Shown: positions 2,604 through 37,466, counted from the stretch's first letter. The stretch is DNA of 64,000 bases from an uncultured Blautia sp. (GCA_900547615.1 URHH01000001.1:2296-66295), one strand, 5' to 3'. Program-made: numbers and translations. Notes: a model not told the origin generated them from the letters alone.

Positions 2604-2611
2604 ATTATCTC

Positions 2612-5265: not shown

Positions 5266-5290
5266 CAAAATCCAACACTTCTCCTTCTGC

Positions 5291-5328: not shown

Positions 5329-5426
5329 GTTTGTTTTTTCAAGAAACGTGTTTTTTCGTGTTGACAATATTTTTTCACTCTGTCATACTGAATATAACCA
5401 AATTCACCAAAGGAGGACATGAGCTT

Positions 5427-6140
5427 ATGTATCTTTCCGATATGCACACTCATTCCATCGCAAGCGGTCACGGAACGATTTGCACTATATCAGATATGGC
5501 AAAATCCGCCGAACAAAAAGGACTGAAACTTCTCGGAATCACCGACCACGGTCCCGCAACCCTCTGCGCCGGCACTCCATCCTATTTCAGAAGTCTCACC
5601 TTTTCTCCAAAAAAGCGCTTTCATGTGGAAATTTTATACGGTGTAGAATTAAATATACTTGACACAGAAGGAACCATAGACCTGGATGAAGAGCTTCTTT
5701 CCCGTCTTGATTATGCAATTGCAAGTATGCATGCCCAAAATTACAGAACCGGTACAAGAGAAGAAAACACAAAAGCATATATAAACGTTATGAAACATCC
5801 ATGTGTCAAAATCCTGGGACACTGCGACAATCCGCACTTCCCTGCCGATTATGAAGCTCTTGCCATTGCCGCAAAAAAAAGCGGAACTGCTTTTGAAATT
5901 AACGAAGCTTCTCTCGCCCCCTATGGATACCGGGGTAATACCAGAGAAAATAACAGAGAAATTCTTTACTGGGCGCGAAAATATGAAGTTCCCGTTCTTC
6001 TATCAAGCGACAGCCACGGGGCAGAGCATGTTGGAGATTTTACTTACGCAGAAGAATTTATTCATAACGAATTATTTCCGGAAGAACTGATTCTCAACAA
6101 TCAGCTTCCCAGACTAAAAGTATTTTTACAGACAAGATAA
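5427..6140 (+). CDS. PHP-domain (polymerase/histidinol-phosphatase family) metal-dependent phosphoesterase
   Basis: Start moved to the ATG at 5427 (MYLSDMHTHSIASGHG...) because RBS AAAGGAGGA lies 9 nt upstream. The 5' part of the listed ORF is antisense low-complexity sequence. His-rich PHP motifs are present: MHTHS, ITDHG and SSDSHG. Confidence 0.75.
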   Translation: MYLSDMHTHSIASGHGTICTISDMAKSAEQKGLKLLGITDHGPATLCAGTPSYFRSLTFSPKKRFHVEILYGVELNILDTEGTIDLDEELLSRLDYAIASMHAQNYRTGTREENTKAYINVMKHPCVKILGHCDNPHFPADYEALAIAAKKSGTAFEINEASLAPYGYRGNTRENNREILYWARKYEVPVLLSSDSHGAEHVGDFTYAEEFIHNELFPEELILNNQLPRLKVFLQTR

Positions 6141-6153
6141 GGAGATACCTGCC

Positions 6154-7530
6154 ATGAATCAGACAGAACATTCTATTTCTTCTGAGGAATCCCCTCTGGG
6201 AACTGCCCCTATCGGGCAGCTTTTAAAAAAATTTGCCATTCCCAGCATCATCAGTATGCTGGTGGGCGCACTTTATAATATCGTAGACCAGATTTTTATT
6301 GGACAAGGTGTGGGAATGCTGGGAAACGCAGCTACGAACGTGGCTTTTCCCCTTACGACCATCTCAACTGCCGTCTGTCTCCTTTTGGGAATAGGAGGCG
6401 CAGCAAATTATAATCTGGAGCTTGGCCGAAAAAACAAAGATAAAGCGAGAAACATTGCAGGCACAGCTTTTGGAAGCCTTATTATTTTCGGCATTTCTCT
6501 CTGCCTTCTGATCCGCTGCTTTTTAACCCCCCTTGTCATTGCCTGCGGAGCAACGGAACAGACTCTTCCATACTCCCTTTCCTATGTAGGAATTACCTCC
6601 CTGGGTTTTCCATTTTACATACTTGCAACAGGCGGAAATCATCTTGTGCGGGCAGACGGAAAACCAGCATACTCCATGTTTGCCACCTTATCAGGAGCTG
6701 TCATCAACACAGTTCTTGACCCTCTTTTTATTTTTGGTTTTGGATGGGGTATTGAAGGCGCAGCCTGGGCAACGGTAATCGGTCAGATTTTTTCTGCCTG
6801 CATGATTCTCTTTTACCTGCCGAAATATCAGGAACATTCTCTTACCTTACGTCACTTCATCCCAAAAGCAAGCTGTTTGCATGCCATTATTTCTCTTGGC
6901 TCTGCTTCCTTCTTAAATCAGCTCGCCATTACAGTTGTACAGATTCTTCTTAACAATACGCTCCGTCATTACGGCGCGGAATCTATTTATGGAAGTGACA
7001 TTCCCATTGCAGTGGCAGGAATTGTCTCAAAAGTAAATATGCTGTTCCTCTCGGTTGTTATCGGTATTTCTCAGGGAGCACAGCCTATTATCAGCTTTAA
7101 CTACGGCGCAGAAAATTTTGAGCGCGTAAAAAAAGCCTACCTGAAAGCAGCCGGAATTGCTTCTGCGGTAGCTTTTACAGGTTTTCTATGTTTCCAGATT
7201 TTTCCAAGACAGATTATCTCTGTTTTTGGAAGCGGCGACAAACTATATTATCAATTTGCCGTTAAGTTTTTCCGAATTTTCCTGTTCTGCACCTTCTTTA
7301 ACGGACTGCAGCCTGTAACTGCAAATTTTTTTACTTCCATCGGAAAAGCAACAAAAGGAATTTTTCTTTCTATGACAAGACAGATTATTTTTCTCATTCC
7401 TCTTGTTATCATCTTTCCTCTGTTCATGGGTGTGGAAGGAGTCATGTTCGCAGCCCCTATTGCAGACTGTGCCGCAGGGATACTTGCTATTCTGTTAGTA
7501 AAAAAAGAGTTCAAGAAAATGACGGTATAA
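6154..7530 (+). CDS. MATE-family multidrug/oligosaccharidyl-lipid efflux transporter
   Basis: 458 aa, about 12 predicted TM helices. Typical MATE N-terminus (...PIGQLLKKFAIPSIISMLVGALYNIVDQIFIGQGVG). Confidence 0.85.
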   Translation: MNQTEHSISSEESPLGTAPIGQLLKKFAIPSIISMLVGALYNIVDQIFIGQGVGMLGNAATNVAFPLTTISTAVCLLLGIGGAANYNLELGRKNKDKARNIAGTAFGSLIIFGISLCLLIRCFLTPLVIACGATEQTLPYSLSYVGITSLGFPFYILATGGNHLVRADGKPAYSMFATLSGAVINTVLDPLFIFGFGWGIEGAAWATVIGQIFSACMILFYLPKYQEHSLTLRHFIPKASCLHAIISLGSASFLNQLAITVVQILLNNTLRHYGAESIYGSDIPIAVAGIVSKVNMLFLSVVIGISQGAQPIISFNYGAENFERVKKAYLKAAGIASAVAFTGFLCFQIFPRQIISVFGSGDKLYYQFAVKFFRIFLFCTFFNGLQPVTANFFTSIGKATKGIFLSMTRQIIFLIPLVIIFPLFMGVEGVMFAAPIADCAAGILAILLVKKEFKKMTV

Positions 7531-7550
7531 ATACCACGTAATAAACACAA

Positions 7551-7573
7551 GAGCGCCGCAGCCTGCGGCGCTC
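7551..7573. terminator. GC-rich hairpin between convergent genes (gagcgccgcagcctgcggcgctc)
   Basis: 11-bp perfect stem. It lies between the MATE stop (+) and the Gfo/Idh/MocA stop (-), with a T-rich tract on the minus-strand side. Confidence 0.4.
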
Positions 7574-7591
7574 ACAGCCCCTTACAAATTT

Positions 7592-8674
7592 TCAGGTATT
7601 TGTCCAGCACATTTTCCGGGTAGAGACAGGCTGTTCTTTCTTAATTGCCTCATCCATAGACAAATAAAGATACGTATCCTGCAAAGCGTCCTTCAAGGAA
7701 TAAATTTCCTCTCCTCCGTCTGCATATCGTTTCATTCCGTCAAGAATCCCAGCCATAGCTATTTCGTCGTCACTGAGGCGCACACCTTCTTTCCAGTAAG
7801 GATTTTCATATACTGTTTTTCCGTTAAAATAAAGACTTCTCAATGTACAGCCTTCCAGATTTTCGAACTGCCCCGGCTCATCTCTCCCTATTCTGCCCAT
7901 AGTAGGAAGTCCGTCTTCTCCAAGATACGACAGCTCGAAATCATAGATTTCTCCCAATGTTCCCCTTACATTCATATGCCGCGTACGAAAGTAATTAAAA
8001 TACTGCTCGCCTGAAAAATCATAAAATCCTGTTTTTCCGCTTTCGAAAATAAAATCTCCCCGTTTTCTTCTGTCATGCACAATATTTTCTTTTCCGTTTC
8101 TGCGAAGCCCTTCCCTTCCGCAATGGTGCTGTACAGGAAAATCATATTGTCTTGCATAAATGGTACAATTTTCGAATCCCACATGAAGAACCTTCCGCAT
8201 AAGACTCACCGCATGATAATCATGCAGCATTCCCATAAACATATTGCTCACCTCTCCCAGACAGCCGCTTTCTATTATATTTAAAACAGCCTGATAATAC
8301 GGACGAAGATGACACTGCTCTGCTACTTGTATTTTTCCTTGATATTTTTCCTTGAGTTTCCAGCATTTTTCCAGTTCCTCCACCCCGTATCCAGGTGGCG
8401 TTTCCGATAAAACGGAAATCCCTTTTTCCATAAGCTTTTCAATATATGAAAGTACATTTTTCCCCGGAACAAGGACCATTACAAAATCATAATCCCTCTT
8501 TAAAAACTCCTCCAGATTCCTTTCTACTTTCCCCGGAAAATACATTTCCATCTCCTGTGCGCTTTTCTCTGAATGAGCCAGCACTGCTGAAACTTCCATT
8601 CTATGAGAAAAAAGCCGGATTACTTTCATGTAGCCTTGTGCTCTCCATCCTGTTCCAATTATCCCTATTTTCAC
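7592..8674 (-). CDS. Gfo/Idh/MocA-family NAD(P)-dependent oxidoreductase
   Basis: 360 aa. N-terminal Rossmann motif MKIGIIGTGWRAQGY. It is the last gene of the sugar-acid operon. Confidence 0.75.
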   Translation of the reverse strand: MKIGIIGTGWRAQGYMKVIRLFSHRMEVSAVLAHSEKSAQEMEMYFPGKVERNLEEFLKRDYDFVMVLVPGKNVLSYIEKLMEKGISVLSETPPGYGVEELEKCWKLKEKYQGKIQVAEQCHLRPYYQAVLNIIESGCLGEVSNMFMGMLHDYHAVSLMRKVLHVGFENCTIYARQYDFPVQHHCGREGLRRNGKENIVHDRRKRGDFIFESGKTGFYDFSGEQYFNYFRTRHMNVRGTLGEIYDFELSYLGEDGLPTMGRIGRDEPGQFENLEGCTLRSLYFNGKTVYENPYWKEGVRLSDDEIAMAGILDGMKRYADGGEEIYSLKDALQDTYLYLSMDEAIKKEQPVSTRKMCWTNT

Positions 8675-8690
8675 TTTAACACCTTCTTTT

Positions 8691-9599
8691 TTATATTACG
8701 GAAAACTCTCTGTATACGTAATCTAAGTGCTGTTCCAGCAGTGCTAGCGTCTGTTTATCCGGATACTTCCCCGGCTGTCTGCAAACAGTATTCCTCATAA
8801 TACCTCTTTTTTTTAATATAATTTTTTCGAGAGCTACGAACGATTCTATATCTCGCTGCATTAAATGTATATGTGGAAGGTATTTATTGAAAAGGTCAAA
8901 AGCTTTTTCTTTCTCTCCATTTTCAAAAGCATCATAAATCATTCGATAAGGACGTATTAATGCTGCCCCGGGCATTACAGCGCACGCCCCTCGAAACAGC
9001 GCTTCATACATACACTCTCCTCCGTTACCAACGATTATACCATATTTATTATGTGTTTTACTTCTTAATGTTGTAATGGCGGGTCCCGTAGGAGATGCTT
9101 CCAATTTAATATATAATTCACGAGAATTCTTTTCACCAATTTCTTCAAATGTGGAACACGGAATTTCTACTCCATTTAGTGCAGGAGCATACTGGATAAT
9201 AATTGGTATTCTCACACTATCTGCAATTGTTCTCAGATGTTTTACAAGCATTTCCGATGTGGGCGATGCGAAACCCGGCGGCATAATATTCAATGCAGCC
9301 GCTCCTTTTTTTTCATAATAAATTGCCTCTCTTATTGCCAGAACTGTAGCATGACTGCTCACAGTTGCAACAATCGGTACTCTCCCTTTATTCGCTTGAA
9401 GCGCTCTCTGAAAAAGTTCTTTTCTCTCGTCCATAGTAAGTTTATAAAATTCCGCGCCTGCTGCAAAAAGACAAATCCCATGAGCTCCATCTCTTATTGC
9501 CATATCTACTATGTCCTCAAAGTTCCCATAGTCTACATATTTGCCATCATCAGTAAAAGGAGTTGGTATGACCGGAATAATACCTTTTAGCGTTCCCAT
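8691..9599 (-). CDS. dihydrodipicolinate synthase/N-acetylneuraminate lyase (DapA) family class I aldolase/dehydratase
   Basis: Start set at the second Met (MGTLKGIIPVIPTPFTDDG...), preceded by AGGAGG. The region around a KL(E/S) Schiff-base lysine is typical of the DapA family. Confidence 0.8.
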   Translation of the reverse strand: MGTLKGIIPVIPTPFTDDGKYVDYGNFEDIVDMAIRDGAHGICLFAAGAEFYKLTMDERKELFQRALQANKGRVPIVATVSSHATVLAIREAIYYEKKGAAALNIMPPGFASPTSEMLVKHLRTIADSVRIPIIIQYAPALNGVEIPCSTFEEIGEKNSRELYIKLEASPTGPAITTLRSKTHNKYGIIVGNGGECMYEALFRGACAVMPGAALIRPYRMIYDAFENGEKEKAFDLFNKYLPHIHLMQRDIESFVALEKIILKKRGIMRNTVCRQPGKYPDKQTLALLEQHLDYVYREFSVI

Positions 9600-9603
9600 T
9601 AAA

Positions 9604-10332
9604 CTACCTCCTGTTAAAAATCTCAAAATCATGAGAAGGATATACCATTACGGGTTTCCATTTTTTTATGGTCTCAAATACTGCCTGACATTCTTCTTCG
9701 TTCACACATAGACCTACGGGAATTTCTTCTCGCATATTTTTTTCTGTCATTACTACATCTCCTGTAATGATGCCATATCCATTTTCCATGCAAACAATTA
9801 TCATCTGAGAACCGCATGTATGTCCGCCTGTATACTGCACAAAAATTCCCGGGAAAATCTCTTCTGCATCATCCCCCTGTATCAAGCGCACTCTGTTTCT
9901 ATTTTTACTTAACCAAGAAAACCACTCCTTTGGGTATTCATCTGGATGGTCTTGTGCTCTTTCCCATTCTTTTTTCTGGCAATAATATACTGCATTAGAA
10001 AAAGATGCCGCATTCCCTACGTGATCCCAGTGAAGATGCGTAAAAATAACTGCTTCTATCTTTTCCGGATTTAAAGATGCCTCCTTCAAAATATTTTTAA
10101 AAGAGCGATTACGTCTTACGCATAGCTGAAATTTATCAGAACACAATGAAGGATCTCCAAATCCGGTATCCACAACAATTTGACGTTCATTTGACTCAAG
10201 AAGAAATAATACCGATGGTACAAATTCCTGTATTTCCGGATTTCCATTCCTATATTTAATGTCATCTCTAACCATTCCAAAATCTCCAGTTAAAACAGGA
10301 GTTACTTTCCATATTTGCTTTTTTTCTTCCAA
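9604..10332 (-). CDS. MBL-fold metallo-hydrolase (lactonase-like)
   Basis: 242 aa. HLHWDHVGN is the HxHxDH zinc motif. The position between a dehydrogenase and a dehydratase suggests a sugar lactonase role. Confidence 0.75.
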   Translation of the reverse strand: MEEKKQIWKVTPVLTGDFGMVRDDIKYRNGNPEIQEFVPSVLFLLESNERQIVVDTGFGDPSLCSDKFQLCVRRNRSFKNILKEASLNPEKIEAVIFTHLHWDHVGNAASFSNAVYYCQKKEWERAQDHPDEYPKEWFSWLSKNRNRVRLIQGDDAEEIFPGIFVQYTGGHTCGSQMIIVCMENGYGIITGDVVMTEKNMREEIPVGLCVNEEECQAVFETIKKWKPVMVYPSHDFEIFNRR

Positions 10333-10343
10333 AATTTTCTCCT

Positions 10344-11519
10344 TTAATATATTGGGACAAATTCTCCTTTATTTACTGCATCAATGTCATTGTATTCATA
10401 TTTCTTTATTGTTTCTTCCCTCAGCTCCACGCCTAATCCCGGTAAATCCTGTATCAATTCTACATATCCGTCTTTATATACAATAGGCTTTATCAGAAGC
10501 TCCTCTCTAAGAGGATTTAAAGTCTGGTCGTGTTCCATAATAAATGCCTCTGGCTCTGATGCCATAAAATGCATATTCGCCATAAAGCCTACTCCGCTTC
10601 CAAAAATATGAGGCGCCATTCTCATATGATGCGCTGAAGCAATTGCTGCAATTCGCTTACACTCAGATATTCCTCCTGAACGCGTCACATCCGGCTGAAT
10701 CATATCTACAGCATGTCCTGTAATCAGAGGTGCAAAACCATATCTCGTAAATTCATTTTCTCCTGCAACAATAGGAATGCTTGTATTTGCAGTTAAACGT
10801 TTAAATCCTTCTACATCATCTGGATGAAGCGGCTCTTCCATCCAGAAAAGATCACAGTCTTCCAGTTTTTTGCATACCCGATACGCTGTATCATAGGTCC
10901 ATGGAAAATTCGTGTAACATTGACCTGCATCTACGAGAAGAGCTGGTTTTGACCCTACTCTTTTTCGCAATTCTCGAATTAATTCTATATCTTCTTCCGG
11001 GTCTTCATTTCCAATTCGAACTTTAAAACCAAAATATCCTTTCGAAACATAACCCAGAGCTTCTTCAGCCAGAGAATCTACAGATTTTGCCATTCCCCCA
11101 CTGGCATATGCCTTAAATTTTGTTCTATACTTTCCGCCAATCAAATCATAAACAGGTCTCTGAAGAATTTTCCCCATAACATCATATAAAGCAATATCAA
11201 TCCCGCTAATAATTGTAGCAATTACTCCCCGTCTTCCATAATGCGCAGACTGAATATAGAGTTTTCTCCATATTTTTTCAATATTAAATGGATCTTCCCC
11301 CAGGAGCATCTTTTTAAAGCGTGTATCTATTATCGTTTCTACTGCTCTCGGAAGATAGGCGGACTCTCCGATTTCACCAAGTCCAGTATATTTATCATCC
11401 ACCGTAATACGCACAAGCACGCAATTCCTCTGGAGTGTAGCACCCCCTGACCACTTCCACTTTTCATCCTGTTCATATCTGTAGCATAATAAGATTGTTT
11501 CCACATCCGTTATCTTCAT
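10344..11519 (-). CDS. enolase-superfamily (mandelate racemase/muconate lactonizing enzyme family) sugar-acid dehydratase
   Basis: 391 aa. MR/MLE N-terminal capping domain plus TIM barrel with KxK region (FKVRIG), metal ligands (LLVDAGQ...EEP...) and the catalytic region. Confidence 0.85.
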   Translation of the reverse strand: MKITDVETILLCYRYEQDEKWKWSGGATLQRNCVLVRITVDDKYTGLGEIGESAYLPRAVETIIDTRFKKMLLGEDPFNIEKIWRKLYIQSAHYGRRGVIATIISGIDIALYDVMGKILQRPVYDLIGGKYRTKFKAYASGGMAKSVDSLAEEALGYVSKGYFGFKVRIGNEDPEEDIELIRELRKRVGSKPALLVDAGQCYTNFPWTYDTAYRVCKKLEDCDLFWMEEPLHPDDVEGFKRLTANTSIPIVAGENEFTRYGFAPLITGHAVDMIQPDVTRSGGISECKRIAAIASAHHMRMAPHIFGSGVGFMANMHFMASEPEAFIMEHDQTLNPLREELLIKPIVYKDGYVELIQDLPGLGVELREETIKKYEYNDIDAVNKGEFVPIY

Positions 11520-12478
11520 TCCAATCCCTCCACAACTATTTTTTCATTAATCGCTTTTACTATCGCTTTATGAAGTCTGCACACCTGTCCCGCATCCTCC
11601 ATTGTGGAAATTGGTTGCTCTCCCTGTAAAATACATCTTTCCACAAACCATTTCATTTCTTCATTAAACATTTCCTGATAAAGACTTTGTTCGTATCCCG
11701 TATCTGTCTTTTCTATAAAATCTCTTCTGGAAAAATTCATGCTTCCTTTATTTCCCAGTATCTTAATTTTAAAGGTCCACGGTTCTGATGAATAATCCTC
11801 TGCTGCCCACGTTACAAAAATCTGCACAATCGTACCCTGCTCATATTCCAACATTACCGAAACCTGAGCACCTTCTGTCTCATTTTCTTTTCCCTCTATC
11901 TGAGTACGAAATGCCGTTATCCGCGCTGGCACACCCAAAAATGCCAAACAAAGATACAATTGATGACAAAGGACGTCTGTTTCCGGTCCTGTATACTTTA
12001 CTGCCAGTTCTTTTGACATATAATACATTTCTGATAAATAAATGTATGCAGGCACTCCTAACCGTTTCTCTTCAAGAGCACGTTTCATCCGTATCAATTC
12101 CGGCAAGTAGATATAACTGTGTCCCGGCATACAAACTACTCCATTTTTCTTTGAAGCTATCGTCATCTCTTCTATCTCCCGCTCCGAAAAACTCACCGGT
12201 TTTTCTACAAGAATGTGTTTTCCCGCTTCAATACCTTTCATAGCATATATGTAATGAAACTCAGGCGGCGTAAGAATACACAACGCATCTACAGAGGAGG
12301 ACTTACAAATTTCATCCTCAGACAAAACAGGCACTCCTAGCTTTTCCCCAAATTCTTTTGCATGTCTTCCCCCTGAAACTGCTGTAATTTCTGCCCATGC
12401 ACATTGTTTAATCGCTACAATATGATTCTCTGCTACTCTTCCGCACCCTATTAATCCTATTCTGATTTTTTTCTTCAT
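11516..12478 (-). CDS. Gfo/Idh/MocA-family oxidoreductase (sugar dehydrogenase-like)
   Basis: 320 aa. MKKKIRIGLIGCGRVAENH Rossmann motif. A 4-nt overlap with the downstream gene indicates translational coupling. Confidence 0.8.
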   Translation of the reverse strand: MKKKIRIGLIGCGRVAENHIVAIKQCAWAEITAVSGGRHAKEFGEKLGVPVLSEDEICKSSSVDALCILTPPEFHYIYAMKGIEAGKHILVEKPVSFSEREIEEMTIASKKNGVVCMPGHSYIYLPELIRMKRALEEKRLGVPAYIYLSEMYYMSKELAVKYTGPETDVLCHQLYLCLAFLGVPARITAFRTQIEGKENETEGAQVSVMLEYEQGTIVQIFVTWAAEDYSSEPWTFKIKILGNKGSMNFSRRDFIEKTDTGYEQSLYQEMFNEEMKWFVERCILQGEQPISTMEDAGQVCRLHKAIVKAINEKIVVEGLE

Positions 12479-12480
12479 TT

Positions 12481-13323
12481 TTACTCCTTAATCGCTCCCA
12501 TAGTAAATCCCTGTACTAGATATTTTTCCAAGTATGTAAATAATAGTAATCCTGGTAAACATGCCAATACCGAGCCAGCCATTATCTGTCCCCAATTAAC
12601 ACTTCCATGTTGTCCCTGCATAAGGGCTATTCCTACGGTAATTGTTCTCATCTCTTCCGTCCTAGCAAACGTAAGCGCATACATATATTCCTGCCAGGAA
12701 AGAATAAACGCAAACATAGCAACTGTCACAATTCCCGGAGCAGCCAAAGGCATAATAATCTTAAACAAGATTCTCAAACGTCCGCACCCGTCAATTCTCG
12801 CTGCTTCTTCAAGAGATACCGGAATTGTATCAAAATATCCTTTTATCATCCATGCACAAAACGGCATAGCAAAAGTAGTATATGCTATAACCATGGACAA
12901 ATGAGTATTCAAAAGTCCCAGTTTGCTCATAATCATATACATTGGAATTAAAAGAAGCATAGAAGGAAACATCTGCACTACAATCAATACTACAGAAAAA
13001 AAGGTTCTGCCATGAAAACGAAAACGTGAAATTCCATATCCTGCAAACATGGCAACAATCAGGGAAATCCCCATTGTAGCAAAAGAAATAATCAGCGAAT
13101 TTACAAAATACGTTTTAAAATATCCCCTATTCCATATTTCTCCGTAATTTTTAAAGCTAAATTCTGAAGGTACCCATTTTGGTATCTCCAAAAAAATTTC
13201 ATCCGCCTCTTTAAAAGAAGTAGAAATCATCCATAAAAATGGCAAAATCAAAACAACTGTCAAAACCAAAATAACTAAAGTACATCCTATTTTACTATAT
13301 TGTCGTTTTTGCGCTCGTGTCAT
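12481..13323 (-). CDS. carbohydrate ABC transporter permease (MalG/UgpE-like)
   Basis: 280 aa, 6 TM helices. Contains the EAA-loop region ...EAARIDGCGRLRILFKIIMPLAAPG. Confidence 0.85.
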   Translation of the reverse strand: MTRAQKRQYSKIGCTLVILVLTVVLILPFLWMISTSFKEADEIFLEIPKWVPSEFSFKNYGEIWNRGYFKTYFVNSLIISFATMGISLIVAMFAGYGISRFRFHGRTFFSVVLIVVQMFPSMLLLIPMYMIMSKLGLLNTHLSMVIAYTTFAMPFCAWMIKGYFDTIPVSLEEAARIDGCGRLRILFKIIMPLAAPGIVTVAMFAFILSWQEYMYALTFARTEEMRTITVGIALMQGQHGSVNWGQIMAGSVLACLPGLLLFTYLEKYLVQGFTMGAIKE

Positions 13324-13327
13324 TTGC

Positions 13328-14203
13328 TCACTCCTTCAATAATTTCCTCACATACACAATACATGGAACAATCAGCACAATCATCATAATAACGGCTGCT
13401 GCCGAAGCATAGCTTGTCTGGAATGTCTGCATAAACAAACGGTATATATATACCGGAAGAGATAACGTAGCTTCTCCTGGCCCTCCTTTTGTTACAACTT
13501 GGATAATTTCCAACTGATTAAAATTCCATATAGATGTAAGAATTGCCGTAATCAACATAATACTTTTTAACATGGGAATCGTAACAAAACGAAAACACTG
13601 GCTTCCTGTTGCCCCGTCTACTTTTGCCGCTTCATATAAATCACCGGGTATTGCCTGAATTCCAGCAAGCAATGTAATTGCAACAAAAGGAATACTCTTC
13701 CATATAATGACCATAACAACTGATACGGCCGCCAGCTTTTCATCGGACAGCCACGAAAGGTTATGTGAAATAATCCCTGTGCTTTTTAAAAGATAATTCA
13801 TCATTCCAAAGGATTCATTCAAAAACCATTTCCATATAATACCTGCTATGGCATTAGGAATAATCCACGGAATCAAGACTAGACATCGAAATAGCTTTTT
13901 ACAATAAATATTTTTATTTAAAAGTACAGCAAACAAAAGCCCAAAAAACATTTCGAATACAAGAATAGCAAGCGTCCATACAATAGAACGTCTTAAAGCA
14001 TCCAGAAACATAGAATCCGTTAATAACGATTTATAATTCTCCACTGCCACAAACTCCGGTTTCACAGGCCGAATCAAACTTTCATTATAAAAGCTGTTGA
14101 CAACCCCCGATAAAACAGGATAGATTAAAATGACCAAAATTAATGCGGCGCATGGAAGAAGAAACAAATAAGGTGTTACTGTTGTTTTTATTCTTTTTTT
14201 CAT
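13328..14203 (-). CDS. carbohydrate ABC transporter permease (MalF/UgpA-like)
   Basis: 291 aa. EAA loop EAAKVDGATGSQCFRFVTIPMLK. Confidence 0.85.
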   Translation of the reverse strand: MKKRIKTTVTPYLFLLPCAALILVILIYPVLSGVVNSFYNESLIRPVKPEFVAVENYKSLLTDSMFLDALRRSIVWTLAILVFEMFFGLLFAVLLNKNIYCKKLFRCLVLIPWIIPNAIAGIIWKWFLNESFGMMNYLLKSTGIISHNLSWLSDEKLAAVSVVMVIIWKSIPFVAITLLAGIQAIPGDLYEAAKVDGATGSQCFRFVTIPMLKSIMLITAILTSIWNFNQLEIIQVVTKGGPGEATLSLPVYIYRLFMQTFQTSYASAAAVIMMIVLIVPCIVYVRKLLKE

Positions 14204-14271
14204 CTGGTATCTCTCCTCGTAAATTGAAACCGGGAGTGCCTTTCACGACACTCCTGTTTCAATTCCAGCTA

Positions 14272-15588
14272 TCATTCTCCATGAAGTTCTTTTAACTTTT
14301 CATCAAGTGTATGCATACCCTCTTCAACCGAAACACTTCCCATCAACATCTGCTGCACAGTAGAATTTCCATACATACTGGTAAGGGATTGCCATGAGGG
14401 ATCAAGAGGCGGTATCATACATTTATCTACTTCGTCTAAAAACGGCTGAAGTTTTTCGTCATAATTTTTCTTTGCATATTGAACAAAATCTTCGGAGTAC
14501 AGCATACCTCCTGCTGCATTACAAAAAGCTCCTGCTATGGTTAGCCCCTCTACATCACTTGGTGTATTATAAAAGTAATCTAAAAACTTCCACGCCTCTT
14601 CTTTATGCTCTGAAGCTTCCAAAATATTAAACGTATTAGGGTAACCTCTGTATACGGTATTATCCGGACCATCGAACATAATTGCAGTTCCCCATTTTCC
14701 TTCCAAATCCGGGCCTTTTTCCTCAACCGATCCCGTTACCCACGCTCCGTTCTGCATCATTGCAACTTCCCCGGATACAAAGGCATTTGTTACTGCCTCC
14801 CAGTCATAATCCACAACACTGTCCGGAGTCACTTTATGAGTCTGAACAAGATCAACCATCATCTGTGTTCCCTTTATTGCCGCCTCATCAGAAAGTTTTG
14901 ATTTCCACGTTTCATCTTCATACAACGAAATATCCGCTCCGCACATCTGCATGAAATGCACCCAGTAATCAGAAGCATTTTCTGCCTGTACTGGCCAGGC
15001 ATATCCATACTGATCTATTGTCCCATCTCCATCTGTATCTTTCGTCAAAGCTTTTGCACATTCGAGAAATTCTTCGTATGTTTTTGGTGGCTTGTCAGGG
15101 TCAAGTCCTGCTTCTTCAAAAAGGTCTTTTCTATAAAACAATGCCCAGTTACAGCCTTCCTGCGGCAGTCCGTCAATTTTTCCATCTTCTGTTGTAATCA
15201 TGGCTTTTGCACTTGGAAGAAAGCTATTCACAAGCTCTTCCGGTACAAATTCACTTAAATCTGCAAGCGCTCCAATTCCTCTGTATTCTGCAAGCATCGA
15301 AGTATTACACATAATCAAATCCGGTGCATTCCCACTTACAATAGAAGTCATAATCTGAGAAGGCGCATCCGTCCAACTGCTTCGTGTCTCTACAATTTTA
15401 ATACCCGGATTTTCCGCCTCAAAATCCGAAATTGCGCGCTCCAGAATTTCAAGCTGTTCCGGAACCCATGCCGTATGCAGAAACTGAATTTCTACATTTT
15501 CTTCCGCTTTTACTTCATGACTCATGCCGCCAAACATTCCCACCGACATTGTCGCACAAAGAAACACACTCAAAAACCTTTTTTTCAT
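14272..15588 (-). CDS. extracellular solute-binding protein of a sugar ABC transporter
   Basis: Start moved to MKKRFLSVFLCATMSVG..., a signal/lipoprotein-like N-terminus with AGGAGG 8 nt upstream. ~438 aa SBP family 1. Confidence 0.8.
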   Translation of the reverse strand: MKKRFLSVFLCATMSVGMFGGMSHEVKAEENVEIQFLHTAWVPEQLEILERAISDFEAENPGIKIVETRSSWTDAPSQIMTSIVSGNAPDLIMCNTSMLAEYRGIGALADLSEFVPEELVNSFLPSAKAMITTEDGKIDGLPQEGCNWALFYRKDLFEEAGLDPDKPPKTYEEFLECAKALTKDTDGDGTIDQYGYAWPVQAENASDYWVHFMQMCGADISLYEDETWKSKLSDEAAIKGTQMMVDLVQTHKVTPDSVVDYDWEAVTNAFVSGEVAMMQNGAWVTGSVEEKGPDLEGKWGTAIMFDGPDNTVYRGYPNTFNILEASEHKEEAWKFLDYFYNTPSDVEGLTIAGAFCNAAGGMLYSEDFVQYAKKNYDEKLQPFLDEVDKCMIPPLDPSWQSLTSMYGNSTVQQMLMGSVSVEEGMHTLDEKLKELHGE

Positions 15589-15626
15589 TACCAAATCCTC
15601 CTGTTCTATTTTATTTTTTCTTTTCT

Positions 15627-16526
15627 TTATCTCATCCTCAGCTTTTGCACCAGACCAATCGTCTGCGCAATCCACTGGGAACAAAATTCATCATTTAAAT
15701 TATAAAAATGACGCTGTACTTTTCCTGCATCCACACCTATAATCCCCGATAAAATGCGATAGTTTTCCGGAAATGCAATTCCATCCAGATGTCTTACAAG
15801 CTGTATAATATTCATTTGAATTTGTGATGCTTTTTCCAAATTTCTGCAATGATATGCCTCTATCAATTCTTTTTCTTCTTTATCAAACATCCAGCTAAGA
15901 GCCGATATACATCCCGATGCACCAAGTGTAAGCGCTGGAAGCAAACAAATGTCCTGTCCTGTAAACACATGAAAATCCGGCCTTTTTTCTTTTATTACAC
16001 CCATCACTTTTGACAAATACATCATATTTCCGCTGCTGTCCTTCAAACCAATGATATTCGGGATATCTAGAAGCTCTTTCATATATTCTAAAGGAACCTC
16101 CGGCGCACAAAACGGAATATTATACATAAGAATTTTTATTCCCGGCGGAGTTTTCTTTGATATAGTTCTATAGAAATTCAGTACATTTTCCGGTGTCTGA
16201 GGAAAATAATACGGTGGACATATAAGAGCATATTTATATCCTATTTTTTCCATATATTCCAAAAGATTCTGCACTCCTCTTTCTGTGGGTGCACTTGCTC
16301 CCCCAATTAAAATTTTATGTTTTCCTACCGCTTCCATCCCCGCTGCAAGAACCTCTTTCTGTTGCTCTGTATCCATATAAATAAATTCTCCTGTCGAACC
16401 ACACATAAGAAGCCCTTGTACACACGTATCTCTGCAGTAAATAAGTTCCTGATACAGCGCATCCATATTTAACTGCCCGTCACTGCTAAAAGGAGTCAAC
16501 ACAACTCCATACATTCCCTTTTCCAT
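15627..16526 (-). CDS. DapA-family (dihydrodipicolinate synthase-like) lyase, first gene of the operon
   Basis: 299 aa. MYGVVLTPFSSDGQLNMDALYQELIYCRD..GLLMCGSTGE is the DapA-family N-terminus. Confidence 0.8.
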   Translation of the reverse strand: MEKGMYGVVLTPFSSDGQLNMDALYQELIYCRDTCVQGLLMCGSTGEFIYMDTEQQKEVLAAGMEAVGKHKILIGGASAPTERGVQNLLEYMEKIGYKYALICPPYYFPQTPENVLNFYRTISKKTPPGIKILMYNIPFCAPEVPLEYMKELLDIPNIIGLKDSSGNMMYLSKVMGVIKEKRPDFHVFTGQDICLLPALTLGASGCISALSWMFDKEEKELIEAYHCRNLEKASQIQMNIIQLVRHLDGIAFPENYRILSGIIGVDAGKVQRHFYNLNDEFCSQWIAQTIGLVQKLRMR

Positions 16527-16769
16527 TTTTCCCCTTTCTGTTCTTATATGTGAACATATTTTATATATCTAAATTATGTTTGTATAAATAATATCACAGA
16601 GGAATTACTCTGTCAATAATGTTATTTTTACTATTTTTTCTTATGATTTTTTATCTATTTTTCACATATAATTAAGTTTTATACTTGTTTTTTCCAAGAT
16701 TTGGTGTATTATATATATGAACACTCTTCATTTATACTTTTTTTAATAAATATAAGGGGGATTATCAGT

Positions 16770-17534
16770 ATGGAACAAAAAAATCATCGACTTTTACAAT
16801 GTGCTTTAGAAATTATGAAATACATATCAAAACAGCCGAAAGGTGTTTCGTTTAAAGAAATCTGTACCATTACTGATTTACCCAAAAGCTCTGTGCATAA
16901 CCTGGTACAGACCATGTGTAATATGAACTTTCTTCAAAAAAAAGAAAATTATAATGAATATCGAATTGGTTTACAGTGTTTCGAAGTAGGAAATGCCTAT
17001 CTTTCTACAAATCCTTTTTATTCTGTAGCTAAAGATATTGTAGAAAATGTATCCATGCGCTGTAATCAGACAACACATTTTGGTATTTTAAACGGTCACG
17101 ATACGATTTACCTTTATAAATTCGACAGCAATCAGCCTCTCCGCATTGCGTCACATACAGGTAAACGTATTCCCGCCCATGCCACAGCTATCGGAAAAGC
17201 TCTTTTATCAGGGCTTTCTAAAACGGAGTTAGATGAATTATATAAAAATTACAAACTGGAAGCTATGACAGAGCACACCATTACTTCTTTGGAAGAACTG
17301 GAAAAACAAATAGAAGAAGTACGAAAAACACAAACAGCCTATGAGTCAGAAGAATCTTCGCCATATGTCCGCTGCATCGCTGTTCCCATCTGCAATCGCA
17401 CAGGAAATGTTATCGCTGCTCTTTCTGTTTCTTTTCCTATTTATCAAAACAACTTGAATACGGAAGCGTTTCAAATGATTCTTTTTGATGCAAAAAGACA
17501 ATTGGAAGCCGCACTGCTGACACTGGATATATAG
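16770..17534 (+). CDS. IclR-family transcriptional regulator (divergent from the sugar-acid operon)
   Basis: Start set at MEQKNHRLLQCALEIMKYI (RBS AAGGGGGA). N-terminal winged-HTH plus C-terminal IclR effector domain. Confidence 0.85.
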   Translation: MEQKNHRLLQCALEIMKYISKQPKGVSFKEICTITDLPKSSVHNLVQTMCNMNFLQKKENYNEYRIGLQCFEVGNAYLSTNPFYSVAKDIVENVSMRCNQTTHFGILNGHDTIYLYKFDSNQPLRIASHTGKRIPAHATAIGKALLSGLSKTELDELYKNYKLEAMTEHTITSLEELEKQIEEVRKTQTAYESEESSPYVRCIAVPICNRTGNVIAALSVSFPIYQNNLNTEAFQMILFDAKRQLEAALLTLDI

Positions 17535-17576: not shown

Positions 17577-18554
17577 CTATCTATACACTCCCTCTTCCCA
17601 CCAAATCTGGTTCATACGCTCATATCTGTCAAGCCCCAGACCTGTGTAAGCGCAATTAGAAGTGGAAAAAATGTATCCATATCCCGGCATTCCCTGCCGC
17701 AGGGAACGGCGCACATCTTCTTCCAGCTCCTCCATTGTTCCCGTCTGCATTTTTCCGCAGTTTACGTTCCCAATAAGACATACCTTGTCTCCATAAAGTT
17801 TTTTCACTTCTGCTAAATCCACGCCGCCCTGCGGATCAAGAGAATGAATAGCATCAGGAGCACAGTCTACAATCATATCCAGAATCGGCATAACATTTCC
17901 ATCGGTATGTTTAATGGTATAGTAGCCATTCGCACGATAATAGGAAATAATTTCTTTTAAATAAGGCTGCACAAGCTCTGCAAACATTTCCCTGCTGTAA
18001 AAAGGATTCGTATTAAAACAGTAATCTGAGCAAAGGGTAAATCCATCTAAAAGCCCCGGATGTTTATTCATTTCCTCACAAAGAGCTGCCGCCTGTTCCA
18101 TCTTCCTTTTTGTCTGTTCGATAAGCACTTCCGGCTCTTCATACATCATGGCGGCAAAATCCACCATGTGATCTCCATCCGGAATTGGATGGGTAACATC
18201 CCCGTGGATTGTAAGATAGTACTTGTCTCCTGAAATCTCACGGATTGTTTCCAGAATCTCTCTGGCAGCCTCCAGATTATCCGGCATTTCTCCATCCGGA
18301 CCTGGATTCGGATGAACAAAAATTGCATTGTGATGATATTTTTCTGCAATCTCTATATAAGCAAGTGCCATATCTTTAAGCTGAAGCTTCTTCTCCGCCC
18401 GGCTCATCTGATTCCACTGACCATAAAAACGATGAAGAGGATGTACGCGCCCGATGGATTCCATAGTCAGAAAAAATACAAGCTCAAATGTAGGAACGTG
18501 ACCTTCTATTTTTTCTCTTTTCAAAGCTTTAATGAATTGTTCTCTTGGAGTCAT
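17577..18554 (-). CDS. uroporphyrinogen decarboxylase (URO-D)/MtaA-family protein
   Basis: 325 aa. URO-D-like TIM barrel, family includes cobalamin-dependent methyltransferases. It is the last gene of the CdaR-linked operon. Confidence 0.65.
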   Translation of the reverse strand: MTPREQFIKALKREKIEGHVPTFELVFFLTMESIGRVHPLHRFYGQWNQMSRAEKKLQLKDMALAYIEIAEKYHHNAIFVHPNPGPDGEMPDNLEAAREILETIREISGDKYYLTIHGDVTHPIPDGDHMVDFAAMMYEEPEVLIEQTKRKMEQAAALCEEMNKHPGLLDGFTLCSDYCFNTNPFYSREMFAELVQPYLKEIISYYRANGYYTIKHTDGNVMPILDMIVDCAPDAIHSLDPQGGVDLAEVKKLYGDKVCLIGNVNCGKMQTGTMEELEEDVRRSLRQGMPGYGYIFSTSNCAYTGLGLDRYERMNQIWWEEGVYR

Positions 18555-20269
18555 AATAATTCCTTTCTTTCTGTTTCTTCAATCAAAACATTCTCTACTG
18601 TTTCTTTCTCTACAAAAATATCCTCTCTGATATTTCTGTATTGATTTCCTGATATTTCTCCATTTTGTACATCTCTTATTTCCAGGGCTCTGTCACTTGA
18701 TTCAAATACATTATTTTTTATTTTAATCCTCTTATTGACAGGAGCAGAAAATCCCTGAGATTTTATAGAAATGCAGCCTCTTCCAAATTTCCCATATCGC
18801 TCTTTTGTCCCACAATTCCGGAATATACAATTATGAATATCAATATCTTCTCCATGACCGCCCTCACAGTGAGTGTCAAACTCTGCACCGATCAAAACGC
18901 CTGCATTCATCATATTTTCGTATGTACAATCTGAAATCTCCACATTTTTACAGCGCAGAAGATGGCCTGCTCCGGCTATATTTCTGTAAACATTATGTTT
19001 GCAGCTATACTGCTCCGGCTCCCAACAAGAAGCGGACATAAGCGTACCCTCTTTTACAAAAGACGGCATTTTTTCAAAAAAACAAATCCTGTATCTTGTC
19101 ATGCGGTGGGGCGCTTCTCTTTTTACTGCCGCGCCTTCTGCTGCTTCTTTTTCCGGTTCCTCGAAATAAGAGCCCAAAATCTCCCAAGAAGAACATTTTC
19201 GTATTTCCGTCTCCGTATGATTGTAAAATTGTACCTCAAAACTCTCTCTCATAGAAATAGGCGCATATCTGCATACTGCCAGCACTTCTTCGTCTGAGAT
19301 AATTTTTTCTGCGATAAGAAAATTACTGTGTACATTCTGCCCGTCCATACGCACGCCTTCTGTAACGCAGTTCTCTATCCTGACATCCCCTGTGCACCTG
19401 TAAATTTTCCAGCCATCTCTCGGTCCTGTAAAAAACTGATTTCCTTCCGGTTTTATTACAAGACGTTCTGCCCAAATATTACAGCAGTTTTCTGTAAGGA
19501 CTGCGTAGCTGTTTGTATTGTAAATTCTGATATTTTTTAATTTTAAATCGTCACATTTTCCAAAGAAAAGCTGAAAATCTGTTTTCCCCGCCTGATGCCA
19601 CGAAAGCCCTTCTCCTACATGAACTTTAGAAGAAAGCTCTTCATCCTCAAGCATCAAAAGCCTCTCTCCAACAAGAGAGAAACGCCTGTCATATCCAAAA
19701 CCATATGTAAGACTTTCTCCCAATAGCGCCTTTTCTTTTATGGAAAAACGATTCATACAATAAGCCGCCATTTTGTCATAACAGGGATTTCCGGGAAACA
19801 CAGAAACAAAAATACATCCTTTTTCTATTTTTACAATTTCTCCAGCTGACGCGCACTCAGGCTTTCTTGTAAACGCAAGATTTTCTATGGTAAGATTTTT
19901 GCAGTTTTCCGCCCACAAAACCGAAGGAAGAAGTGTCTGGGAAATCCTGGAATTAAACCCTGCAAGAACGGTTGCCGGCTCTCCTGTCTCTGTACATTCT
20001 CCTTCTAAAGTCAGATTCTCCAGATTTTCCAGATAAATATGACAGTCCTTTTCATGAATGTCTCCGCATCCATCGTCATGGGCAATGGAAAGAGTTTCGC
20101 AGCATTCCCACTCAGTCAGGCAGTAAATCCCTTTTCCAAAATGTACTGTTTTTATATTCTTTTTTTCTGCGTCCTGAAAAATGTTTTTAACTTCTTCAAG
20201 TGTAACCCTGCTTTTATCGCTGATATATAAATCTGCATTTAGCTTTTTCTCTTTCATCTCAGTTCTCAT
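18551..20269 (-). CDS. right-handed parallel beta-helix repeat protein (pectin-lyase fold; putative intracellular glycosidase)
   Basis: 572 aa, no signal peptide. Repeated NxxI/V..N beta-helix rungs (NCIFRNCG, NNVFESS, GNQYRNI). Cys-rich. Confidence 0.45.
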   Translation of the reverse strand: MRTEMKEKKLNADLYISDKSRVTLEEVKNIFQDAEKKNIKTVHFGKGIYCLTEWECCETLSIAHDDGCGDIHEKDCHIYLENLENLTLEGECTETGEPATVLAGFNSRISQTLLPSVLWAENCKNLTIENLAFTRKPECASAGEIVKIEKGCIFVSVFPGNPCYDKMAAYCMNRFSIKEKALLGESLTYGFGYDRRFSLVGERLLMLEDEELSSKVHVGEGLSWHQAGKTDFQLFFGKCDDLKLKNIRIYNTNSYAVLTENCCNIWAERLVIKPEGNQFFTGPRDGWKIYRCTGDVRIENCVTEGVRMDGQNVHSNFLIAEKIISDEEVLAVCRYAPISMRESFEVQFYNHTETEIRKCSSWEILGSYFEEPEKEAAEGAAVKREAPHRMTRYRICFFEKMPSFVKEGTLMSASCWEPEQYSCKHNVYRNIAGAGHLLRCKNVEISDCTYENMMNAGVLIGAEFDTHCEGGHGEDIDIHNCIFRNCGTKERYGKFGRGCISIKSQGFSAPVNKRIKIKNNVFESSDRALEIRDVQNGEISGNQYRNIREDIFVEKETVENVLIEETERKELL

Positions 20270-22556: not shown

Positions 22557-22574
22557 CGTACTTCCTTTCCTAAA

Positions 22575-32855: not shown

Positions 32856-37466
<4,611 letters not shown>

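Follow-up and report, generated by a model that had tools for sequence, protein, structure and literature searches.

The window analysed here, a stretch of 64,000 nucleotides from an uncultured Blautia sp. (GCA_900547615.1 URHH01000001.1:2296-66295), carries between positions 7,592 and 17,534 a putative sugar-catabolic operon of nine structural genes and, divergent from it, the gene for an IclR-family regulator. An open reading frame map and a Pfam scan bore out the gene order of the original prediction, with ten genes in the expected places and families. The features of the locus are as follows.

16701–17534, plus strand: IclR-family regulator (Pfam HTH_IclR and IclR_C), divergent, likely start ATG 16772 with a ribosome-binding site
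16616–16588, minus strand: promoter-like site, TTGACA-17-TATTAT with TG (consensus scan, 11/12 matches)
16540–16555: candidate operator, the palindrome GTTCACATATAAGAAC, which lies after the promoter and before the DapA1 ribosome-binding site
15627–16526, minus strand: DapA1, DHDPS/NAL family (Pfam DHDPS), the first structural gene
14272–15684, likely start ATG 15588, minus strand: solute-binding protein (SBP) of a CUT1-type ABC importer (Pfam SBP_bac_1/SBP_bac_8)
13328–14203, minus strand: ABC permease 1 (Pfam BPD_transp_1)
12481–13323, minus strand: ABC permease 2 (Pfam BPD_transp_1)
11516–12478, minus strand: Gfo1, an NAD(P) oxidoreductase, the GfoB of the module (Pfam GFO_IDH_MocA N- and C-terminal domains)
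10344–11519, minus strand: enolase-superfamily enzyme of the mandelate racemase subgroup (Pfam MR_MLE_N and MR_MLE_C)
9604–10332, minus strand: AiiA-like hydrolase of the metallo-beta-lactamase (MBL) fold (Pfam Lactamase_B)
8691–9632, likely start 9599, minus strand: DapA2, DHDPS family, with a KdaD-like signature (Pfam DHDPS)
7592–8674, minus strand: Gfo2, atypical and Gfo/Idh/MocA-like, the last gene (Pfam N-terminal domain only)
7573–7551, minus strand: terminator-like hairpin, a 10-bp stem, 8 of its pairs G-C, with a T-rich tail after it

The nine structural genes all lie on the minus strand, with no gap or overlap larger than about 70 nt. The promoter-like site is the highest-scoring in the region and lies 60 nt upstream of DapA1, and the hairpin, the strongest terminator-like structure found, is 19 nt past the Gfo2 stop codon. 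As these two features bound the nine genes, the genes look like a single transcription unit. There is no gene for an ABC ATPase in the operon; a MalK-like ATPase is encoded in the next operon (25411–26514).

The IclR control that had been claimed for the operon is supported by the divergent iclR gene and by a conserved palindrome in the iclR-dapA1 intergenic region. The element GTTCATATAT(A/T)(A/T)GAAC is found at the equivalent position in the window and in five related loci (L001, L003, L004, L005, and L006), a half-site related to it lies near the iclR start, and the Treponema locus L060 carries a similar TCCATATATATGGA. This fits the 16540–16555 palindrome being a predicted IclR operator with autoregulation. 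Autoregulation has been shown for FucR of Campylobacter jejuni, the gene of which is divergent from a dapA-first operon (PMC12566272). The best NCBIfam match of the IclR protein is KdgR, at 153.8 bits against a cut-off of 275. A second palindrome of 18 nt (ACAGAGTAATTCCTCTGT, 16596–16613) forms an inverted repeat inside the promoter spacer; it is not conserved outside the species and was rejected as an operator.

The window is 99% identical to L001, a contig of an uncultured Blautia sp. of the same species. The order from DapA1 to DapA2 is maintained in eight Lachnospiraceae genomes (L001–L008), the carriers besides L001 being Blautia ammoniilytica, Ruminococcus sp. 5_1_39BFAA, a mouse Lachnospiraceae metagenome-assembled genome (MAG), two Diplocloster species, Clostridium sp. 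C105KSO13, in which DapA1 is absent, and a Bacillota MAG. Enolase orthologues of 49–76% identity are present on contigs from Treponema, Sphaerochaeta, an actinobacterial MAG, and unassigned metagenomes, where the core combines a CUT1 SBP and two permeases with GfoB, the enolase and MBL proteins, and a DapA2 orthologue. In Treponema only the importer, the enolase enzyme, and DapA2 are present, with neither Gfo nor MBL. With the order kept in eight genomes and the core recurring across phyla, the genes are not together by chance. The type of regulator varies among the versions, being IclR, AraC, LacI, or GntR. Conservation is much higher in the enolase-superfamily protein than in the other products of the operon: it is 93% identical in L003, where MBL, DapA1, Gfo1, and DapA2 are 58–71% identical, and 87% identical in Diplocloster (L005), where these four are 44–57% identical.

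A metagenome scan with the family profile returned almost only relatives of 33–40% and added one usable context, L073, of the L071 type. In a tblastn search of plasmids no relative exceeded 40%, and the best ones were without names. A literature search for this exact combination of families found no description of the operon.

The general logic originally proposed, from sugar to lactone, acid, and 2-keto-3-deoxy acid and then to cleavage or a Weimberg-type dehydration, fits the gene content. In none of about 20 contexts is a keto-deoxy-acid kinase of the PfkB/KDG type adjacent to the module, and it is mainly for this reason that a non-phosphorylative route is supported. At the level of families, an oxidative, non-phosphorylative route is well supported. 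The enzymes that would carry it are considered in turn.

The catalytic set of the enolase enzyme is complete. D197, E228, E254, D277, and H304 are invariant in 32 family members, and the metal-ligand residues align with the ligands in 5olc, 3ozm, 3sjn, and 3bjs. The three carboxylate metal ligands on strands 3–5 and the His-Asp dyad on strands 7 and 6, which distinguish the mandelate racemase subgroup, are all present. The strand-2 motif is K166-x-R168, which is invariant in the family and stands in place of the K-x-K found in DauB, the Gci-like protein, FucD, and 3ozm. The enzyme scores under the cut-off of every NCBIfam equivalog model. The best match is AraD_Arch, the archaeal D-arabinonate dehydratase (score 240.6, cut-off 650), followed by GalD (189.4, cut-off 311), TalrD/GalrD (185.6, cut-off 500), gluconate/galactonate dehydratase (181, cut-off 750), ManD (176.7, cut-off 550), and the RhamD model NF011968 (168.3, cut-off 393). 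A protein database search with the enzyme gave 3297 proteins at E <= 1e-30. Few of the best 120 of these are named, and those names are generic family names, the exception being a protein of 42% identity that carries the JGI label D-arabinonate dehydratase.

The best solved relatives score 198–210 bits and are 5olc, 3ozm/3h12, 3sjn, 3bjs, and 4ggb. The first is DauB, a 3,6-anhydro-D-galactonate cycloisomerase, and 4ggb/4hpn is the Agrobacterium galactarolactone cycloisomerase (PMC5698469). FucD is not among the 60 best PDB matches. In comparison with the reference enzymes, DauB and the Gci-like protein are 35% identical to the window enzyme (200–219 bits), DgoD is 29% identical (141 bits), Agrobacterium GalrD 28% (128 bits), ManD 26% (112 bits), Escherichia coli RhmD 27% (105 bits), and the outgroup, muconate cycloisomerase, 26% (94 bits). 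Rhizobium FucD is the most distant protein tested, with 27% identity over 234 residues (79.7 bits), and four plasmid genes annotated as FucD have 26–27% identity over 58–61% of the query. The Gci-type enolase of a Salipiger profundus plasmid (L162) is likewise a 35% relative. The nearest characterised relatives of the enolase enzyme, by sequence comparison, are the ring-opening cycloisomerases DauB and Gci.

In a neighbour-joining tree with 100 bootstraps, for which named references were fetched from plasmids and E. coli, the window enolase and its orthologues form their own clade (99–100% bootstrap). This clade joins uncharacterised Chloroflexota proteins (97% bootstrap). It does not join FucD, RhmD, GalrD, DgoD, ManD, DauB, or the Gci-like protein, and no grouping with aldarate dehydratases is seen. 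DauB pairs with the Gci-like protein, apart from the window family. As the deeper nodes have bootstrap values of 2–36%, the tree leaves room for kinship with DauB and Gci.

The two DapA-like proteins, both originally taken to be lyases, differ in their active sites. That description holds for DapA1, in which GSTGE, M-Y-N-I-P with the catalytic Tyr, and G-L-K-D-S-S with the Schiff-base Lys are all present. DapA1 is, on these motifs, a canonical class I pyruvate aldolase of the DHDPS/NAL family. It passes no NCBIfam equivalog (NanA 124.7 against 281, DapA 120.3 against 206, KDG aldolase 73.6 against 390), and it has orthologues in L067, L068, and L154. Where DHDPS has P-Y-Y-N its sequence, read on its own, has P-Y-Y-F, so that the Tyr seems to be kept. 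In GudL, a DapA-like 5-KDG aldolase, Met110 and Lys194 replace the ancestral Tyr and Asn (PMC11775122).

DapA2 carries instead the signature of the dehydratase KdaD. Its best PDB matches, 7c0c and 3fkk, are structures of L-2-keto-3-deoxyarabinonate dehydratase. It has Gln in place of the catalytic Tyr (IIIQYAP) and K-x-E at the Schiff-base Lys (YIKLEAS), and it has no GxTGE motif. These Gln, Lys, and Glu residues align with Gln143, Lys171, and Glu173 of 3fkk, the roles of which in KdaD have been described (PMC9795676; PMC13398020), and they are kept in all 16 orthologues. It is concluded from these motifs that DapA2 would act as a Schiff-base C4-dehydratase and not as an aldolase. The protein accompanies the enolase enzyme almost everywhere. 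It fails the test for KdgD, with Gln at the Tyr141 position and a TIGR03249 score of 50.7 against 373.95. In all orthologues aligned, it also lacks the second catalytic Glu of KdaD, having Gly, Ala, or Ser in the Glu200 column, and it lacks the KdaD Phe53, having Gly or Ala in that column. In KdaD, Glu200/201 is the C5 base and an Asn-Phe pair is in the carboxylate-binding loop, and a 2026 engineering study found that CnKdaD F53T E201N has balanced activity on 5-keto-4-deoxyglucarate, Kda, and Kdx (PMC13398020). DapA2 probably acts on a larger, or differently processed, keto-deoxy acid. The operon thus would seem to encode both exits, aldol cleavage by DapA1 and dehydration by DapA2. The conserved exit is the predicted DapA2 dehydration, which yields no lactaldehyde.

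Gfo1 passes the family test for Gfo/Idh/MocA proteins, having the Rossmann motif GLIGCG, VEKP for E-K-P, and DVLCH for D-x-x-x-H. It shares 42–45% identity with L062 GfoB and with the C-terminal part, about half, of a fused protein in L065. The family includes aldose 1-dehydrogenases for L-arabinose, D-galactose, and D-xylose (PMC9795676). In a PDB search Gfo1 had no close solved relative and was not near the solved arabinose and galactose dehydrogenases. A second oxidoreductase, GfoA, often adjoins GfoB in related loci and is missing from the window. In several loci the GfoA and GfoB genes have an 11-nt overlap, and in L065 they form one gene with a product of 677 residues (coupled or fused genes at L065 7971–10004, L005 7857–9903, and L062 5642–7661). 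This coupling and fusion suggests a heteromeric or two-step oxidoreductase. Gfo2 is unrelated to GfoA and within this operon type is found only in the same species. It departs from the family features, with S-E-T-P-P, which has no Lys, replacing E-K-P and with a C-terminal half that has no Pfam domain. Its relatives are 355–365-residue proteins of gut Clostridia.

The MBL hydrolase contains H-L-H-W-D-H, corresponding to the HxHxDH metal motif, and its best matches are N-acyl-homoserine lactonases. It scores 75–80 bits against AiiA structures and 87.8 against the AiiA equivalog, for which the cut-off is 375, which places it in the family but not among the orthologues of these lactonases. Orthologues of 32–44% identity are found in L062, L067, L068, and L153–L155. 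The hydrolase is proposed to be a putative sugar lactonase. The described pentonolactonases are SMP30-type (PMC9795676), therefore an MBL-fold sugar lactonase would be a non-orthologous replacement. The SBP is 41–57% identical to those of the Treponema (57%), L062, and L065 modules; its PDB relatives score no more than 98 bits and have assorted sugars as ligands. The best NCBIfam matches are UgpA, GlcT, and MalF for permease 1 and GlcU, MalG, and UgpE for permease 2, all under their cut-offs. PDB searches with SBP, Gfo1, Gfo2, and GfoA gave only remote, functionally mixed matches.

On balance it is probable that the operon is an IclR-controlled unit that takes up a sugar or oxidised sugar and degrades it oxidatively, without phosphorylation, with all catalytic roles assigned from family and motifs. 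The CUT1 importer would take up the substrate, using an ATPase encoded elsewhere. Gfo1, as a sugar 1-dehydrogenase, would oxidise the anomeric carbon to give a lactone, which the AiiA-like MBL hydrolase would open. The K-x-R enolase enzyme would then take the alpha-proton and eliminate the beta-substituent to give a 2-keto-3-deoxy acid, working either as an acid-sugar dehydratase or as a lactone- or ether-opening cycloisomerase. From here DapA2 could form a Schiff base and eliminate the C4 hydroxyl, in the manner of Weimberg, KdaD, or KdgD chemistry, to give a 2,5-dioxo acid, while DapA1 could cleave the 2-keto-3-deoxy acid to pyruvate and an aldehyde. IclR probably represses the unit through the conserved GTTCATATATNNGAAC palindrome and would be released by a pathway intermediate.

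Several observations weigh against this scheme. The nearest characterised enolase relatives are cycloisomerases and not dehydratases (PMC5698469). DapA2 lacks the second catalytic Glu of KdaD, so that a plain pentonate Weimberg step is not assured. No enzyme of the operon reaches a curated NCBIfam equivalog cut-off, therefore every step is assigned at family level only. As the Treponema version lacks Gfo and MBL, the imported ligand could already be an acid, and Gfo and MBL could act elsewhere in the route. The original prediction had every step encoded, which goes too far, as the operon has nothing obvious for the aldehyde or the 2,5-dioxo acid. A NAD-reducing route without an obvious redox outlet is odd in a fermenter. 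Oligosaccharides are the usual cargo of CUT1 importers, and the window operon has no glycosidase gene.

The genes that neighbour related versions of the module bear on the substrate. They include a LacZ-type GH2 gene in L067, GalK and GalT in L069, and, in the Sphaerochaeta locus L068, a glycosidase whose C-terminus is BglB-like and, after it, a RhaM-family mutarotase (53 bits against 99.6, YiiL). A DUF5107-TPR protein is encoded in L002 and L155, UxaC and an aldehyde:ferredoxin oxidoreductase in L154, and a D-2-hydroxyacid dehydrogenase in L060, L065, L153, and L155. L065 further has an AP_endonuc_2 gene, LarA, SDR, and Aldedh, and L152 has a PIG-L deacetylase. In L071/L073 a Zn-dependent alcohol dehydrogenase replaces Gfo. 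These neighbours point to a galactoside-released reducing sugar, to a 6-deoxy-L-hexose, or to uronate/aldarate chemistry, and none is decisive. The mutarotase-type, beta-galactosidase, and GalK/GalT genes that flank some versions fit a reducing sugar oxidised at C1. The substrate may tentatively be sought among the neutral pentoses and hexoses, in an L-arabinose- or D-galactose-like series and possibly released from a beta-galactoside. A uronate or aldarate is a less probable candidate, and a 6-deoxy-L-hexose and some other compound are both unlikely.

It is possible, but unlikely, that the operon serves an undescribed route through which gut and other anaerobes would use an unusual or oxidised sugar, with enzymes of three subfamilies that have no assigned function. 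These could be a K-x-R enolase dehydratase or cycloisomerase, a heteromeric and sometimes fused GfoA/GfoB, and a KdaD-like DapA2 that has lost the C5 base and carries out a decarboxylating or new elimination on a six-carbon keto-deoxy acid. Uronate- or aldarate-lactones and other sugar acids derived from diet, host, or inflammation could then be substrates.

A uronate/aldarate route has a similarly limited chance. Gfo would oxidise a uronate to an aldaro-lactone, and the enolase would be an aldarate dehydratase or a Gci-like cycloisomerase giving 5-keto-4-deoxyglucarate. DapA2 would dehydrate and decarboxylate this product, a KdgD-like function on a KdaD-like scaffold, and DapA1 would act as a GudL-like aldolase giving pyruvate and tartronate semialdehyde, then glycerate. 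Gci and DauB are indeed the nearest characterised relatives of the enolase (35%), and a Gci-type homologue adjoins kdgD in Salipiger, but the enolase is not GudD, GarD, or GalrD: it matches no GudD model, falls under the TalrD/GalrD cut-off, and is 28% identical to GalrD. The absence from DapA2 of the C5 base Glu201, with Gly or Ala at the Phe53 position, recalls the activities of CnKdaD F53T E201N (PMC13398020), although DapA2 has Gln and Glu where KdgD has Tyr and scores 50.7 against 374 with the KdgD model. Gut Lachnospiraceae use glucarate and galactarate by means of a DapA-like aldolase and an ABC importer, but DapA1 seems to keep Tyr-Tyr (PYYF) where GudL has Met110 (PMC11775122), and GarR is not present. 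The context is similarly divided. The regulator is KdgR-like, the next operon carries a CdaR-type regulator and glycerate kinase, four related loci have a D-2-hydroxyacid dehydrogenase, and AP_endonuc_2 (hydroxypyruvate-isomerase fold), UxaC, aldehyde:ferredoxin oxidoreductase, and Aldedh occur in related contexts. The CUT1 permeases, mutarotase-type genes, and GalK/GalT, however, indicate neutral sugars, and a lactonase is needless in a Gci-type route.

The original prediction was that the aldehyde product, should the substrate be a 6-deoxyhexose, would feed an adjacent glycyl-radical enzyme (GRE) microcompartment. In this reading a 6-deoxy-L-hexose, L-fucose or L-rhamnose, would be converted through lactone, aldonate, and keto-deoxy acid to pyruvate and L-lactaldehyde, the latter being reduced to 1,2-propanediol for the microcompartment. 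This is now judged improbable. The locus in question lies about 2.5 kb away on the minus strand, to the left of two opposite-strand genes that separate it from the operon.

5136–6140, plus strand: PHP-domain gene
6154–7530, plus strand: MatE gene

It consists of a GRE of the PFL2/glycerol-dehydratase type, its activase, a class II aldolase, and the N-terminus of an acylating aldehyde dehydrogenase of the PduP/EutE type. The window has no shell-protein gene; shell genes must lie beyond its left edge. Only the PFL2/glycerol-dehydratase subfamily model is passed by the GRE, and specificity for 1,2-propanediol could not be confirmed. In the region 1–1321 (minus strand) the partial aldehyde dehydrogenase opens with an amphipathic N-terminal stretch (MVQEIVQEVMAKM), and the class II aldolase has a C-terminal tail past its domain (…DADLVANITKQVMAQLGLK). 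Both stretches look like encapsulation peptides.

The adjacency of the operon to this locus is seen only in L001, of the same species, and the seven other genomes (L002–L008, 4–10 kb flanks) have other neighbours. FucD is the most distant relative tested, scoring under the muconate cycloisomerase outgroup; RhmD, which in E. coli is an enolase-superfamily enzyme in an operon with a regulator, is 27% identical here (105 bits; RhamD model 168 against 393). Placing the dehydratase was the check put forward with the original prediction, and it leaves the enolase outside the FucD, RhamD, GalD, ManD, and GalrD groups, a plain negative as regards deoxy-sugar enzymes; the grouping with aldarate enzymes that would have refuted the prediction is not seen either. 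The best NCBIfam model is nevertheless that of the archaeal D-arabinonate dehydratase, a Sulfolobus member of which also serves L-fucose catabolism (PMC6336799). Bifidobacteria convert L-fucose to 1,2-propanediol through non-phosphorylated intermediates with a DapA-like candidate aldolase (PMC5080750), but DapA2, the conserved partner of the module, lacks the aldolase Tyr. In about 20 module contexts there is no FucO-type lactaldehyde reductase or lactaldehyde dehydrogenase gene. A RhaM-family mutarotase gene ends the Sphaerochaeta operon L068, although its product scores 53 against a cut-off of 99.6 and is found in that locus only. It is mainly this gene and the Campylobacter-like layout, in which a divergent IclR gene faces a dapA-like first gene (PMC12566272), that keep the coupling to the microcompartment alive. 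A functional tie between the operon and the GRE locus, which rests on proximity in one species, is not supported.

It is very improbable that the enolase is an anhydro-sugar-acid cycloisomerase, acting for example on 3,6-anhydrogalactonate from dietary agar or carrageenan in a gut-Firmicute form of the Dau/AHG pathway with a non-phosphorylative end. DauB is the top solved relative of the enzyme (5olc, 210 bits), and some bacteria without dauC may use such an end (PMC5698469). The Vibrio 3,6-anhydro-L-galactonate cycloisomerase also matches (132 bits), and three versions of the module are flanked by beta-galactosidase genes or GalK/GalT. DauB, however, is only 35% identical, has K-x-K where the family has K-x-R, and is not joined with the window family in the tree. 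Known routes use an aldehyde dehydrogenase and not Gfo with a lactonase (PMC5698469). No anhydro-galactosidase, agarase, or carrageenase gene is present in the contexts seen, and the carriers include spirochaetes of termite, rumen, and digester.

Three further candidates were set aside: a sialic-acid-like route (NanOx and NanA), on account of the enolase and MBL content and the failure of the NanA models; hydroxyproline-type chemistry (a DHDPS-family deaminase with an enolase-type epimerase), on account of the sugar-type transporter, the glycosidase and mutarotase neighbours, and a cis-3-hydroxy-L-proline dehydratase score of 99.5 against 500; and ascorbate breakdown (L-lyxonate/L-xylonate, diketogulonate), for which there was no direct support.

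Other regions of the window carry further carbohydrate and redox genes. The next operon (17577–31028, minus strand) encodes a CdaR-type 'sugar diacid' regulator, a CUT1 SBP, two permeases, and its own MalK-like ATPase, together with a GH13 protein, glycerate kinase, a GH63/mannosylglycerate-hydrolase-like protein, a GDSL esterase, a beta-helix protein, and a URO-D/MtaA-like protein. It looks like a glycosyl-glycerate utilisation system. URO-D/MtaA-like genes, of the methyltransferase fold, are found near the enolase module in three unrelated contexts (window 17577–18554, L063 1671–2726, and L153 12479–13663); it is conceivable that they handle O-methylated sugars. A gene of the D-lyxose-isomerase family (31272–31958) is beside that of a GH2 beta-galactosidase (32856–37433) of 1525 residues with Laminin_G_3 and NPCBM domains. 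A run of redox genes (42505–53671, minus strand) encodes class I fumarate hydratase alpha and beta, a FAD_binding_2 flavoprotein, ferredoxin-type and NAD-binding subunits, a 662-residue HdrA-like Fe-S flavoprotein, a CCG-domain protein, and a dehydrogenase of the Ldh/Mdh family.

Blautia and related bacteria abound as commensals in the human gut, and a large part of their carbohydrate repertoire has no assigned function. The operon is a compact, conserved, and probably inducible module, and its three central enzymes belong to no curated functional family. As the evidence stands, it does not account for the feeding of the neighbouring microcompartment. The carriers Blautia ammoniilytica, Ruminococcus sp. 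5_1_39BFAA, and Diplocloster are culturable. Once known, the substrate would give a function to an entire enolase-superfamily clade and to a new subgroup of the DHDPS family, would test whether Weimberg-type dehydration operates in fermenters, and would tell whether commensals possess one more route for oxidised sugars, the use of which has recently been tied to fitness in the inflamed gut (PMC11775122).

Among known systems, the L-arabinose Weimberg pathway of Azospirillum brasilense (AraA-E) is the closest in logic and in two enzyme families. As proposed for the window operon, it has a Gfo/Idh/MocA aldose 1-dehydrogenase, a lactonase step, and an aldonate dehydratase step, with no phosphorylation, and its KdaD, of the DHDPS family, shares Gln143, Lys171, and Glu173 with DapA2 (PMC9795676). 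The Azospirillum lactonase, however, is SMP30-type where that of the window would be MBL-fold, and its dehydratase is IlvD/EDD-type whereas the window has an enolase-superfamily enzyme. Azospirillum also has a 2,5-dioxopentanoate dehydrogenase, whereas the window operon has none and has an additional canonical aldolase. DapA2 further differs in lacking the KdaD Glu200/201 and Phe53, and Gfo1 is not close to the solved arabinose and galactose dehydrogenases.

The rarity of such pathways in strict anaerobes had been overstated, since routes for L-fucose in Bifidobacterium (PMC5080750) and for glucarate and galactarate in Enterocloster (PMC11775122) have been described. The gud/gar system of Enterocloster clostridioformis (GudD, GarD, GudL, GarR, and GarABC) is likewise an acid-sugar route of a Lachnospiraceae member, in which substrate enters by an ABC importer and a DapA-like enzyme acts on the keto-deoxy acid that an enolase-superfamily dehydratase makes (PMC11775122). 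The dehydratases there are true GudD/GarD orthologues, 54–64% identical to those of E. coli, unlike the window enzyme. DapA1 seems to lack the GudL Met110, the window lacks GarR, and the Gfo and MBL proteins of the window have no counterpart there.

The likeness to the L-fucose locus of C. jejuni (cj0480c-cj0490) is in the layout, with an IclR-type repressor divergent from a dapA-first operon (PMC12566272), and in the non-phosphorylative logic, which is shared with the bifidobacterial L-fucose route, both being found in gut anaerobes or microaerophiles (PMC5080750). The enzyme and transporter families differ, Campylobacter alone having a short-chain dehydrogenase/reductase (SDR), an amidohydrolase lactonase, a UxaA-type dehydratase, MFS/FucP transporters, and an aldehyde dehydrogenase. 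The bifidobacteria have FucD-type dehydratases, and the window enzyme is remote from FucD.

In the uronate pathway of Agrobacterium and Salipiger (Udh, Gli, Gci, KdgD, and KGSADH), a DHDPS-family dehydratase follows an enolase-superfamily enzyme, as is proposed for the window operon. Gci and DauB, however, have K-x-K and form their own pair in the tree, and KdgD has Tyr where DapA2 has Gln/Glu. On the side of this pathway and of Zobellia DauB, Udh is an SDR, Gli is an amidohydrolase, and there are TRAP transporters and a terminal aldehyde dehydrogenase. Region 1628–8159 of the Salipiger profundus plasmid (L162) is a textbook oxidative uronate cluster, with genes for an oxidoreductase, an aldehyde dehydrogenase, kdgD, a Gci-type enolase, an amidohydrolase, GH88, and GH28.

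Ghasempur et al. in 2014 reportedly described an L-lyxonate pathway in Pseudomonas aeruginosa, with LyxD of the mandelate racemase subgroup and a DHDPS-family keto-deoxy-L-lyxonate dehydratase; it is said to start from the acid and to have an MFS importer and a terminal dehydrogenase. The pairing of a mandelate racemase subgroup dehydratase with a DHDPS-family keto-deoxy dehydratase, the most conserved pair of the module, recalls this route. The window enolase scores 181–184 bits against the 3stp group, putative LyxD-type structures, which is under its scores with DauB and 3ozm. The operon is set apart from the known systems by the combination of an MBL lactonase, a K-x-R enolase clade, a KdaD-like protein without the C5 base, the GfoA/GfoB pair, and a CUT1 importer.

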